DNA from: Flectonema sp. DT1601
Taxonomy: Eukaryota
Length of the DNA: 64,000 nucleotides
Direction of reading: 5' to 3'
Assembly (NCBI GenBank): GCA_964019425.1
Contig: OZ025787.1
Location: 62,001 to 126,000, forward strand
In this document: positions 28,593 through 34,039 of the stretch, one piece after another
Position numbering within the stretch: position 1 is the first letter of the stretch
How the letters are laid out: each line of letters begins with the position of its first letter
Made by a program: the position numbers and the translations under genes
The notes under the pieces: generated by a model
What the model was told of the DNA's origin: nothing
Seen by the model: the letters and a program-made list of their open reading frames with translations, nothing else
The model's database searches: none

Positions 28593-31500
28593 TCACTCCG
28601 CGCTTTTTAATATTTGTGAGGCTCTCTCATCGCTCACACCAGTAGTTTTGCAATTTCGAACACAGAGACCAGAAGTAGTCGGTACTACTCCTTTGATGGT
28701 CCATTTCCCTTTTAATACTTCCCAAATTCTAATTCTGTTATCAGCACTGCTGGAGACTAAATACGATCCCGACGACGCCATCAGATTCACTTCACTGCAG
28801 TGACCGAGAAGTGGGATTGGAGGGGTTTTTGAATACAGAGAATTAATTATAATTTTATTGCCAACAGACGTTGCGAGTTCTGAATTGTTGACAACAGAAA
28901 TAGATTTCGAAGGATACTCAATATTTAAGTGAAGTGAATACGGCACGACGTCAACTACCTTCCCTGGACCACTCCAACAAACTGTCCAACATCGAACTCC
29001 ATCACTTCCGGATGTGATCAGCAGAGTTGGTTTTGATATAGTTTTTGAGATGAAATATAATTCACGCACTGGAGTGGTGGTCACGGAAACAGAATCTTTT
29101 TTAAAATACGATTCGATGAGTGGATTACATGACAAGGTCACAATTTGAGTCTCACAACCGAATGATATAAACCCGTCGTTACTGTAAGCTAAACAACCTG
29201 ATCTACTCAAAGTAAGAGAATCATCAATACTTGTTGTGTTTATTAGAATCGGGTTTGTGATGTCATCACATTTCCAAACACTAATATCAGAAGTATCACT
29301 GACTGCCATAATATAACAACCACATGATGTCACCGCTACACTTGATAAGTGTGATTGAGATGATTTATTCTTAATCTTCCCAACTTGATTGTATTCAGAA
29401 CCACACATCACAAATATCGTAATCTGATCTCTTGAAACAGAGAGAAGGTATTCACCATCAGTACGACTGAAGTAAAGAAGTTTTGATATTCTCTGAGATA
29501 ATGGACCTGCATAACATACATGTGATCCAGTTATTAAATGCCAAATACGAATAACACCTGTTAGTGATCCAACAGCAATGTGATTAACTGCTATTGAAAC
29601 ATCAATTGAAGTTGATTTCAATACATTCTCTCTACTGATATCGTGAATTACATCCGATTGGATTGTTTCTCTTGCATTCCAAACTCTAATTTCTTTATCG
29701 TCACTCCCAGACACGAGAGTACGACCAGTACTACAGTAGGCAAGACATCGGACTTTGTCTCTGTGTCCAACAAGTGTTTTAATTGATTTTCTTGTAAAAA
29801 CATTTAAAATATTTATAGTCGATTCGTCAGAGTGAGCTAGAAATTGATTTCCAGTTGATGACGGAGAATAAGACATGGCATCACACCAGGATCTAAATTC
29901 TTCAGTTATTTCTAACTTATTTAAATCCCAAACACGAATACCGCTGTTACAGTTTGTCGTTAGAGAGCTTCCCCGTCCTGTAAAAGCAATATTTGACAGT
30001 CCAGGAAAGCATTGATTTATAGACGACACTTTATTAATTATAATATCAGAGCCTTTCATAACGACACTCCATATTTTTATATTATTTGATGCATTACAAC
30101 TACTACCTGAAGCCAACAAAGACTCTATTGATGTCAGTGCTTCGATCTCTCCAAGTGTGTGTGCTTCACTTAAGTGTTTTTGAATTGAATTATCAACACC
30201 GTCACCACACCAAAATGTTAATCCACCTGATGAGTCACCGCCAACAAGGTGACAGTGAGTTGGGTTTTCAATAAAACAAAGAGTACACATCCATCGATCA
30301 CTGTTTTCTAAAACCATCTGTCTCCAGTCACCCTGATGCTCAGTCACTAGAACTACAACATCTCGACAGCATGCAGCTACACTTACCTTGTTCTTGAAGA
30401 GGACAGACGTGACACTTGTCACCCAATTCTTTGTGTTCGCTGCATTCCGATGGACAAACACATCGTCAAACACAAATTTAAAAACAAGTTCTCCACTTTT
30501 ACTGGAGTGAATTCGTAAAGTTCCATCCATACAACCACTTGCGATGTATGATTTCTTATTAGTAAACACTGTTACTGTCAACACAGGAGAACCAGTGTGG
30601 ATAGGAGGGAGTAGCATACCAAAGTCAGTATTTTGAAAGGTTACAGATTCGATATTCGTGTCGATGAATTGAGCACCTCTGAGAGAGCAGTTCGTGAAAA
30701 CAGCTTTCTTTAAATTACAACCTGAGAAAACAATGTTTGACAAGTCGGCATCTCGTACATGTAATCCACTCACACTAACATCACAAACAGGAACACCTGC
30801 AGCTGCTAACATACTCAAGACGTTAGAAGTCGCTGTGATTGTGTTGTCATCAAGTTGTCGCTGCCATAACACGTTTCTCGACTCACCTTTTATAAGTGGT
30901 CGAAGTTCTTCTAACAAAGTACTTCTCTTTGAAGGAGAACACTGTACGTGTAACCTGTAGAGTTGTAAGGCGTTTGGAACAATATTTAGATTGACTCCTT
31001 TTAATCGAATAGTTAGAGTTTGAACAGGAGAATCGAACAACTTCTTTGAAATTAAATATTCAGCGATGGCTTTGTGTCTGAAAGTAACCATCCCTCTTCC
31101 TTGATGAGCATCTTCAAGACGGAGAGGAATTCGAGATAGTTTTTCTGAGAATCCATCTTGCTTCATTTCCTCTTTAGAGAAGAAACGAGATAGCAGGCCT
31201 TCCCAGGTATCTGTTTGTTGTGAAATAGAAATCATTTTCGTATTGAACAATACAAGGATGCACAATTAAAAAATAACATACTTGACGCAAGCATCCTACA
31301 CGCGAGTTCTTCAGCAAATGCAAGTTGTGTGCTGATCAGTTTATTGACTCGATTTTTTATCGCAGAAAGTGGATGTCCTTCTTTTATGATCCACCACTTA
31401 AGATAAGATTTGAAAATATCATTTGAAGTGAATCGAACTTGGGCATCAAGTTTTCGAAGTTCGGTTATGGATGAAGTTGCCATGTATAGTTGAAAAGGAT

Positions 31501-34039
31501 TTCTGATACTTCCCCAGAGACCTTTCTCAAGTAGAATCGATCGAAGATCATTACTTTCACATCGAACGATGTAATCATTCTTGTCGGCTTCACTAAATGG
31601 ACGCATCTGATAGACGTCTACGTCACTTATAAAGTTATTTATGGTTAAACCATTCCTCGTTAAGTACTCAAGACGACATGTTATAAGAATCTGAACACCA
31701 GGAGACCCAAGAATACTTGGATTGGCTTCTATTAATTGATTGACAGTTACCGTGTTAGTGATGTCACATGATATCTCATCAAGGCTTTCTAATACAACGA
31801 TAACTTTATAGTTATTTAAGAGGTATTTTATCCTGTCTTTACCACAATCTATTCCCAAAGTATATTTCTTTATATAATCATCAATCGCGTTGTTAGTAAG
31901 AGCCGCACAGATTCCTCGGGAATTTGTAACCCTCGCTAACGGTACGAATATCGGAAATGTCTCATCAGCGGTAGTCAAGAGTTGGCTGACTGTTTTTAGT
32001 GAAAGGGAGGTTTTACCTGAACCACCACCTCCTAGGATGGCTAAGTGAGTTGGTGATTCTTTTGAGGATTTTGTCCATCTGTGTAAAAGTTCGTAGAATT
32101 TAATATCTTCCTGAGGGTCGTCACAAAGATCAACGCAGAGAGTTGCTTCAACGTATTTTTTAAAGAAGTTCTGAAATACGCTGTTCTCTCCAAAAACAAA
32201 CCTATTAGCATTCCTTATTACTTGCAAAACAACTTTTTCTGGAAGACGACCAGTCGGAACTTCAATCATAACGACAACGTCTTGTGATCGATCACACATT
32301 CGAAGAAGAGATGAAGACAATTTCCAAACAACTTTAAAAATGCTATTTGGTCTGAATAGAACCTCATACTCTTTATAAACTGAAAACTGTGTGACGGAAG
32401 CACCTGAAGAAGAAACTTTAAAAATTAAAACCCCACCACCTGGATCCATACATGCCGTTGCAGCAACATCAAACATTTTACTACCAGACATGAAGTGTTT
32501 GAATATGAAGGGACGTCCGACTTGGAAATGTTCTGATCGCAGATTTGCATCCCCTCTCACATCTGTGTAAAGTTTTTGTTTTGGAAGTCTTTCTAACAAT
32601 ACATGAAGCCAGAACATCATTGGCTTCAACATATTAAATCGAACAGTCTCTTTAATACTTCCGTTTACAAGATCAGTGTGATCTGTATCTCTCAGCGTTT
32701 CTTTAATACGTGACGTTCTATAACTTACTTCAGTTGTGTATAAGCAACAGGCTACAATCATATCAGCGGCATCAATTGGGATGCTACCTATTAATGTGTA
32801 AATCCAATAAGAATCCTCTTTAAGAGGAGAGGAACTATCACTGAGAGAGTGTTTAAACCTCATCAGTGATTCTATAATTGATTTCGCTCTACTTTTAATT
32901 GATTTATTTATAGTACTAAAGTCTGACTTAGTGAATCCCATACTTCTAAACGGAGATATGTTTTCATTCAACCAATCAAACATTGTTCCCTCGCTATTTC
33001 TACTAAAGTGTTGAACGATATCAGTTTTTGATATCTCTGAACAATTATACAACTCCTCAAGAATTTCAGGATTATATGAAGGTCGGGATAGATTTAAATG
33101 ACCTGTTGAGTTGTTAAGTTTCAAGGGACTCATTACATCACCAGCCTCAAACTCAGATAGAATTTCAATTAATTCATTCGCATTATTTATATAATACTGA
33201 CTTAGTTGTTTAAAAATCAACTCTTCTTCCTCGATTTCACTACCGAAAGAAATGATCGCATATGAAAGCGGAGAACAGTCAGAATCATCTATGGCGGATA
33301 TTAATTCTGTTTTTGACTGTTCACAAGCAATCTTCATGAGGTGCCTAAGCAATTTATAATTCCCGCTAGCGGCTGCGAGGTGAAGAATATTGGAAGACTT
33401 ACTATCAAGTTTTGTTATATCACCACCCTGTTTAATAAGGTGGTCAACCATACAAAGATTACCAGAGCTTGCAGCAGCATGTAGAAAAGTACTTCCACAA
33501 TTCGGATACATAGGTTGGTTAATTAGCTCTTTTATGGTTTGTGGATTTTCAGTTCTTTTATAATATTTCCGACGATTTTCTAAACACTTTTCAACACATG
33601 AGATAGAACCTCTTTTCATTGAAAAAATCACCGTGAGAGGGGTTCGATCTGGATCCAATGACTCGATGGCATTTTGCAACGCGGTTTCGTTATTTGAATT
33701 AATGACAGTTGTATCAGCTTGTCTCTCAAGTAGGTATTCTATAATAAGAGGACGGGAAAACCATGCTGCGGCATGCATTGGTGTTGATCCTCCACCGTCT
33801 GTGACGTTTACATCAGCTTCTAGTTCTTCAACAATGTATCTTGTTATATTCATGTTCCCTGACTTAGCAGCGAGATGTAATAATGATTTCCCCTCAAACT
33901 TCATATCCGTAGCTCCTGGAGTATCTGTAACCCAATTCACGAACTCTTCTAATGTGGCAGTTGTCATTTCCCAACATATTTCACGGCGGTCACCCTCATT
34001 CAACAACAAGCTCAGTGACTTCCTCACTTTTGGAGGCAT
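28593..34039 (-). CDS. NLR-like STAND protein, ~1791 aa: ankyrin repeats - ADP-ribosyltransferase - NACHT NTPase - pentapeptide repeats - WD40; exons 34039-31282, 31210-28593
   Basis: ANK: GKSLLHLAA, GSTPMHAAA, GSTFLHAAA. ART: LYTTE...VRG...FMSGS...EYEVLFRPNSIFKV. Walker A GGGGSGKT; Walker B-like VIVVLESLDE; ILITCR. Pentapeptide: ADLSNIVFSGCNLKKAVFTNCSLRGAQF. WD40: GHRDKVRCLAY...LVSGSDDKEIRVW. A 71-nt phase-1 intron joins the two track ORFs in frame. Confidence 0.88.
31211..31281 (-). other. Spliceosomal intron, 71 nt (NLR-like gene)
   Basis: GTATGT...CACAACAAACAG; phase 1; gives MLAS-N-TWEG and fuses the 935-aa and 890-aa ORFs. Confidence 0.88.

Follow-up and report, generated by a model that had tools for sequence, protein, structure and literature searches.

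The locus described here raises the question whether a protist has built an ADP-ribosyltransferase (ART) into a receptor of the NLR type. The gene concerned occupies positions 34039-28593 on the minus strand of a 64,000-nucleotide stretch of Flectonema sp. DT1601 (contig OZ025787.1, positions 62,001 to 126,000 of the forward strand; hereafter, the window). From the sequence it was confirmed as a real single gene, with a predicted intron, encoding an ankyrin-ART-NACHT-pentapeptide-WD40 protein of 1791 aa, in which the layout of effector, nucleotide-binding domain (NBD) and repeat sensor is present. By analogy with STAND proteins it probably works like an NLR, and the reading preferred here, with a probability of roughly 0.55, is that of a ligand-gated STAND switch which would likely act by mono-ADP-ribosylating arginines, as a means of defence or cell death.

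The spliced product forms one frame from the ATG at 34039 to the stop ending at 28593. Exon 1 (31282-34039, minus strand, as are all features of this gene) codes for aa 1-919, that is, the ankyrins, the ART, the NACHT NBD, HD1 and the first part of the winged helix; the predicted intron (31211-31281) comprises 71 nt and is of the GT-AG type, with the donor GTATGT and an A/C-rich acceptor ending in ACAG; exon 2 (28593-31210) codes for the rest of the winged helix, the pentapeptide repeats, the WD40 region and the stop. Without splicing, the first frame ends after 935 aa; the positions from about 31232 to 31265 are shared by both long open frames of this strand. A profile covering NACHT to pentapeptide was constructed from 26 relatives, excluding the gene itself, and was used to score the GT-AG alternatives that restore the frame (n = 138); the intron 31281-31211 ranked first (346.3 versus 332.1 bits). 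The same GTATGT and A/C-rich ACAG signature was found in one intron each of the phosphatase gene (3136) and the threonyl-tRNA synthetase gene (59947), whose removal restores conserved motifs that we take to be universal ones; the minus strand of the window contains 16 GTATGT sites. The 31282/31210 junction falls within the winged helix of the NACHT module, a region over which single-frame relatives align unbroken. P0004, a transcript-derived protein of Flectonema (relatives are designated by P-numbers), carries all five parts in one frame.

The intron is thus supported by the signature shared with housekeeping introns, by the best profile score and by the continuity of the winged helix in relatives, and on the same grounds the joining of the two open reading frames through a consensus 71-nt intron, claimed in the initial annotation, is upheld at the level of sequence. 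These results also render extremely improbable the presence of two separate genes, or of a pseudogene broken by a frameshift, in which a stretch resembles an intron by chance: such an explanation can appeal to a junction that is a prediction, but it would split a winged helix that relatives keep continuous and would leave to chance a shared signature and the first rank among 138 alternatives. Further minus-strand GTATGT donors at 63049, 34443 and 19767 resemble those at 59947 and 3136; all five belong to short introns, with lengths of 57-117 nt.

By predicted structure and motifs, the region of aa about 406-595 (32255-32824) is an R-S-E ADP-ribosyltransferase, identified from its motifs, relatives and fold. 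An ART-like domain had been placed at aa 425-570; it is present, with a wider extent than claimed. The AlphaFold2 model, calculated for aa 400-919 from a 52-row alignment, reached a predicted local distance difference test score (pLDDT) of 88.8 and a predicted template modelling score (pTM) of 0.88; it ends at residue 919, so the part of the winged helix encoded by exon 2 lies outside it. A model of the ART from the single sequence (pLDDT 36) was discarded. In VIA-align, model residues 7-196 matched 6dre, an ART of a toxin/immunity pair (Z 16.5, root-mean-square deviation (rmsd) 2.5, 153 aligned), and also Vis (Z 16.1), ART2.2 (Z 14.9) and ExoS/T, and Foldseek with the same model gave Vis, 6dre, C3, ExoS and SpvB among the matches, with E about 2e-7 for the ART fold. 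The top neighbours of aa 330-620 in the ESM Atlas were ART/ADPrib_exo_Tox clusters at 0.96. A sequence search of the PDB with the ART returned nothing relevant, and no phage match was found for this region.

The ART motifs of the protein are R495, S518-G-S520 and E557-x-E559. All three catalytic sites are represented in 62 of the 66 ART rows that were aligned; the R, the S and the last E are kept in 61 of these 62, and E/Q-x-E in 60, while E-x-E occurs in 58 of the 66 rows. The four rows outside the 62-row count are three N-terminal fragments and P0069, in which the Glu column is a gap. Overall identity is 19-32% (mean column identity in the 52-row alignment, 11%), and catalytic residues so strongly conserved at this level speak for an enzymatically active family. 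The Pfam cut-off for ART was passed by 24 of the 35 proteins that were scanned.

The middle domain, predicted in the initial annotation to be a NACHT/STAND NTPase with the P-loop GGGGSGKT at 32009-32032, fared likewise: by structure, as modelled, and by motifs, the protein is a STAND/NACHT protein. The NBD extends over aa about 597-830 (31550-32251), with Walker A at aa 670-677 (the P-loop at the coordinates claimed), Walker B at 748-755 and the sensor R789. HD1 and the winged helix follow at aa about 831-975 (31044-31549, split by the intron), with the NP motif at 847-848 and a retained His motif (H965) at 963-972, encoded by exon 2. Model residues 198-520 matched NOD2 (Z 15.8, rmsd 3.6, 280 aligned), NLRP3 (Z 15.6) and NLRC4 (Z 15.4) in VIA-align, and NOD2, NLRP3, NLRC4 and NAIP5 were among the Foldseek matches. 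The VIA-align partition assigned aa 406-595 to the ART and aa 597-919 to the NACHT module, placing them directly next to each other; that their relative orientation is fixed is suggested by the high pTM of the model. Residues G675 and K676 of Walker A are found in 98% of the 52 rows, the sensor-1 arginine R789 in 50/52 and the HD1 proline P848 in 46/52; D754 and E755 of Walker B are kept. The close relatives P0003, P0004 and P0005 pass the Pfam NACHT cut-off.

With regard to the remaining parts, ankyrins, pentapeptide and WD40 were all above the cut-off in the Pfam scan. The ankyrins (Ank_2, 92.7 bits) form two clusters, at aa 45-122 (33674-33907; E 2e-26) and at aa about 174-261 (33257-33520; Pfam). 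The pentapeptide repeats are located at aa about 1072-1116 (30621-30755; 35.1 bits over aa 1074-1113, 30749-30632), and the degenerate WD40 beta-propeller region at aa about 1126-1760 (28689-30593; 71.4 bits in three stretches); from its length and the 13-14 repeats of relatives, two propellers are inferred. The domain order first proposed for the protein was therefore borne out by Pfam, motifs, relatives and predicted fold. Hydropathy revealed neither a signal peptide nor a membrane helix, TROVE/VWA gave no match in the Pfam scan, and PADLOC matched the ankyrins, the P-loop weakly, and nothing else.

To place the protein in a family, one phmmer run was performed with aa 290-919 against 50%-identity representatives (E up to 0.001), and 79 proteins were obtained, the query included. 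According to local profiles, the ART stands directly before the NBD in 63 of them (query included), a count biased by a query that itself held both domains; the NBD occurs alone in 11 and the ART alone in five. Pentapeptide and WD40 repeats were each detected in 30 of the 63 ART-NBD proteins, and many others are partial or have other ends. The local ankyrin and WD40 profiles under-detect, ankyrin assignments rest on Pfam, and the Pfam domains given for WD40-rich relatives are those among the matches listed, so that weaker domains may be hidden. Word-index searches for homologues added nothing beyond P0017, long WD40-rich proteins (searched in the range 3897-5000 aa), the protein itself and one bacterial NACHT.

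Sixteen members could be named among the 30 of 79 looked up: three each from Flectonema, Lacrimia and Namystynia, two from Apiculatamorpha, and one each from Artemidia, Diplonema papillatum, Papus, Euglena gracilis and Pigoraptor, with several paralogues per species. They span diplonemids, prokinetoplastids and one euglenid (we take Flectonema to be a diplonemid and Euglena a euglenid), together with one filasterean record; Pigoraptor feeds on a kinetoplastid, and its record may be prey contamination. The member from Diplonema papillatum (KAJ9461234.1) is annotated only as a WD-repeat protein.

The search for paralogues and altered domain layouts that had been suggested with the initial annotation thus brought relatives in which the ART-NACHT core is kept and both ends are swapped. 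All five parts are present in one frame in P0003 and P0011 as well as in P0004. N-terminal partners of the core include SAM, RCC1, EEP, ANF-receptor, ankyrin and Dpy-30, and C-terminal partners include WD40, TPR, LRR and PDZ; 55 N-terminal regions fell into 15 clusters. Judged from these sequences, ART plus NACHT is a conserved unit (62 relatives), and the ankyrins belong to a set of N-terminal additions that can replace one another. The nearest NACHT matches lacking an ART carry restriction-endonuclease, HEPN, EAD1 or TIR heads (four scanned). In a quick, unrooted tree of 53 of the 63 ART-NBD rows, from which partial or split domains were dropped (P0004 and P0007 included), the protein grouped with P0002, P0003, P0005, P0006 and P0011 (SH-aLRT 98), three of which have Pfam ankyrins.

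Several family members show particular arrangements. P0046 (Namystynia) has ANF-receptor/periplasmic-binding-type ligand-binding regions at aa 405-1048 and 1662-2129, ahead of ART-NACHT, which suggests a receptor-coupled version of the module. In P0055, P0053, P0057, P0039, P0040 and P0018 the core is fused to an EEP nuclease/phosphatase, RCC1 repeats, SAM, BspA-type LRR and TPR. P0006 (6012 aa) contains two NACHT-pentapeptide-WD40 modules, with an ART on the first only, and P0033 (1636 aa) contains five tandem ARTs without NACHT.

The protein was compared with known systems, the statements on published ones referring to the accessible parts of the sources cited. With R-S-E mono-ARTs (6dre, Vis, ExoS/T, C3, HopU1 and vertebrate ART2.2) it has in common the fold (Z 14-16.5) and the R, S-x-S and E-x-E motifs, at an identity of 14-26%. 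Cholera-toxin-like R-S-E mono-ARTs are secreted, injected or cell-surface enzymes, whereas here the domain is fused to a STAND ATPase and lacks a signal peptide. Animal NLRs (NOD2, NLRP3, NLRC4 and NAIP) have the NBD-HD1-winged helix fold in common with the predicted model (Z 14-16); their CARD/PYD and LRR are absent from the 1791-aa protein, which has an enzyme built in instead. In HET-E/HNWD NLRs of fungi, the WD40 repeats are near-identical and evolve in concert; such repeats are absent in this copy, and HET-E-type membership was rejected. These fungal proteins are alike in combining NACHT with a WD40 sensor, in their shuffled domains and in forming a multigene family, but the main text of the survey of their effectors contains no ADP-ribosyltransferase term, and ankyrins are listed there as C-terminal repeats, in contrast to their N-terminal position here (PMC9815663).

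Bacterial NACHT proteins and antiviral STANDs likewise place an enzyme before NACHT and repeats behind it, and their sensors include pentapeptide repeats and beta-propellers (10.1101/2022.07.19.500537; PMC13581612). They are prokaryotic, whereas the present protein comes from a eukaryote with introns. The accessible effector list of Kibby et al. (10.1101/2022.07.19.500537) includes no ART, and no ADP-ribosyltransferase term occurs in the main text and seven supplementary files of Lee et al. (PMC13581612). The TeTIR-NACHT-WD40 proteins (TEP1, NWD1 and NWD2) are similar in having an NAD-using enzyme directly before NACHT, WD40 or TPR behind it and an optional N-terminal extension, and differ in their effector, a TIR-like NADase as against an R-S-E ART fold; the isolated TeTIR domain kills cells, which constitutes a tested precedent for an NAD-using enzyme before NACHT-WD40, and in both cases the activation mechanism of the full-length protein is a proposal (10.64898/2026.09.21.753143). 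Membership of the TEP1/TeTIR family was rejected, as the domain before NACHT folds as an ART in the predicted model. Finally, LRRC9 combines LRRs with an ART-like domain, and the accessible text mentions no NACHT fusion for it (PMC7955679).

If the protein works as known STAND proteins do, its WD40 region would keep the NACHT switched off with ADP bound. Binding of a ligand to the WD40 propellers would lift this block, ADP would be exchanged for ATP, and oligomerisation or a domain shift would free the ART. The E-x-E motif points to arginine as the acceptor, and the freed enzyme may accordingly modify arginines of proteins, while the ankyrins could recruit the substrate or set the location. 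The target might be an essential host protein or a protein of an invader, either a virus or an intracellular bacterium. The switch would be cytosolic, and its attached ART would be turned on as a defence or cell-death output. Many divergent paralogues and swapped sensor types are typical of conflict systems, and the ART-NACHT family displays these traits in its paralogue number and sensor swapping.

Several observations weigh against this reading. The gene sits between the housekeeping genes MCM and Dcc1 and not in a receptor cluster; no long DNA repeats were found within it, only two canonical WD repeats were scored, and of the 21 relatives in which at least three WD repeats were scored, no more than two have a pair that is 80% or more identical. 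The ANF-receptor, PDZ, SAM and Dpy-30 partners suit ordinary signalling equally. Pfam gave no ART match in the protein at E up to 1 and a NACHT match (E 2.4e-4, 21.4 bits) below the cut-off of 26.7, and the ESM Atlas recognition value of aa 330-620 (2118) is lower than the 2300 mark. The copy itself is divergent, with E751 as the first acid of Walker B, where 46/52 rows have D and 4/52 E, and with S-G-S instead of S-T-S, seen in 1/66 ART rows; in P0069, a full-length relative, the ART motifs are lost and the domain looks degenerate. Since the query held both domains, the proportion of 63/79 does not establish that the NACHT clade is free of other effectors.

The E751 and S-G-S substitutions and the degenerate ART of P0069 would fit a paralogue that is in decay or weak in catalysis and supports an active partner as its scaffold or sensor, as would the degenerate WD40s and a branch length of 1.22 versus a median of 0.69 in the tree; this is nevertheless very unlikely, given an open frame of 1791 codons, a canonical intron and the retention of R495, S518, E557, E559, K676, D754, E755, R789 and H965. 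Some R-S-E folds are NADases, and a defence switch was considered in which the ART fold acts mainly as an NAD glycohydrolase and, having no protein acceptor, depletes NAD or generates an ADP-ribose signal. We regard it as distinctly unlikely in view of the frequency of E-x-E (58/66), of top structural matches that are presumably arginine-specific protein transferases, and of ankyrins beside the ART, which suggest a protein partner. Its precedents are the NAD-targeting STAND effectors in the list of Kibby et al., namely TIR, SIR2, DrHyd and PNPase (10.1101/2022.07.19.500537), and TeTIR, an NADase (10.64898/2026.09.21.753143). A ligand-gated writer of ADP-ribose for ordinary cell regulation, marking host proteins reversibly on internal or environmental cues, is rather unlikely, and retains weight because of the housekeeping neighbourhood, the absence of near-identical repeats and the signalling-type partners, including fusion to an ANF-receptor ligand-binding region. 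The family is present in all three euglenozoan classes and so probably old, in keeping with a regulatory role; trypanosome TEP1, another long WD40 protein, is found in vaults with splicing factors (PMC12547018), and toxin ARTs have been reused by eukaryotes as regulatory protein modifiers (PMC3417536). Against it stand the many divergent paralogues per species, the swapped sensor types and the restriction-endonuclease, HEPN, EAD1 or TIR heads of the nearest ART-less NACHT matches.

Tentatively, at somewhat less than even odds, Euglenozoa may possess an old, expanded and undescribed NLR-like family with arginine mono-ADP-ribosylation as output, which would be a new STAND effector class and, for free-living diplonemids, euglenids and kinetoplastids of early-branching lineages, a concrete candidate for an innate immune system. 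As far as the accessible STAND/NLR effector lists go, they consist of nucleases, proteases, kinases and NAD-destroying enzymes, with no ADP-ribosyltransferase, and a family that couples a fixed ART-NACHT core to exchangeable sensors would extend the NLR design by a new output. The literature search found no description of an ART-NACHT protein or of a STAND with an ART effector in the largely open-access sources within its reach. The euglenozoan ART-NACHT family is thus probably undescribed; the initial annotation had likewise known of no characterised protein with this five-part architecture. The recognition of viruses or intracellular bacteria by free-living protists is, to our knowledge, little understood, and the family would give a direct handle on this question. 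As members exist in Diplonema papillatum and Euglena gracilis, the idea is testable.

With respect to the genomic setting, a 378-aa frame and the MCM gene lie upstream of the ART-NACHT gene, and Dcc1 downstream. Its GC content of 0.38, and of 0.30 at third codon positions (GC3), are within the range of five neighbours, and recent transfer or contamination was rejected. The window encodes a paraflagellar rod gene and has introns of spliceosomal type; the rod gene and the diplonemid origin of the closest named relatives, which belong to Flectonema and Lacrimia, uphold the assignment of the receptor to a euglenozoan protist. P0001 and P0009, as well as P0002 and P0003, possibly each lie on one contig, and a distant paralogue may share a contig with the ART-NACHT gene.

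All long genes seen in the window are located on the minus strand. Besides those mentioned, they include a Ser/Thr-rich surface-type protein (5929-8415), a protein with ubiquitin-like and ankyrin-repeat parts (10680-11966), a two-repeat ion channel (15880-19212), a Vanin-like nitrilase (38766-40235), a second protein with a ubiquitin-like domain (41636-42985) and a PAN-domain membrane-type protein (53248-54669). A TGT/ACA triplet repeat tract of ~800 bases extends over about 58060-58900, where long low-complexity frames are open on both strands.

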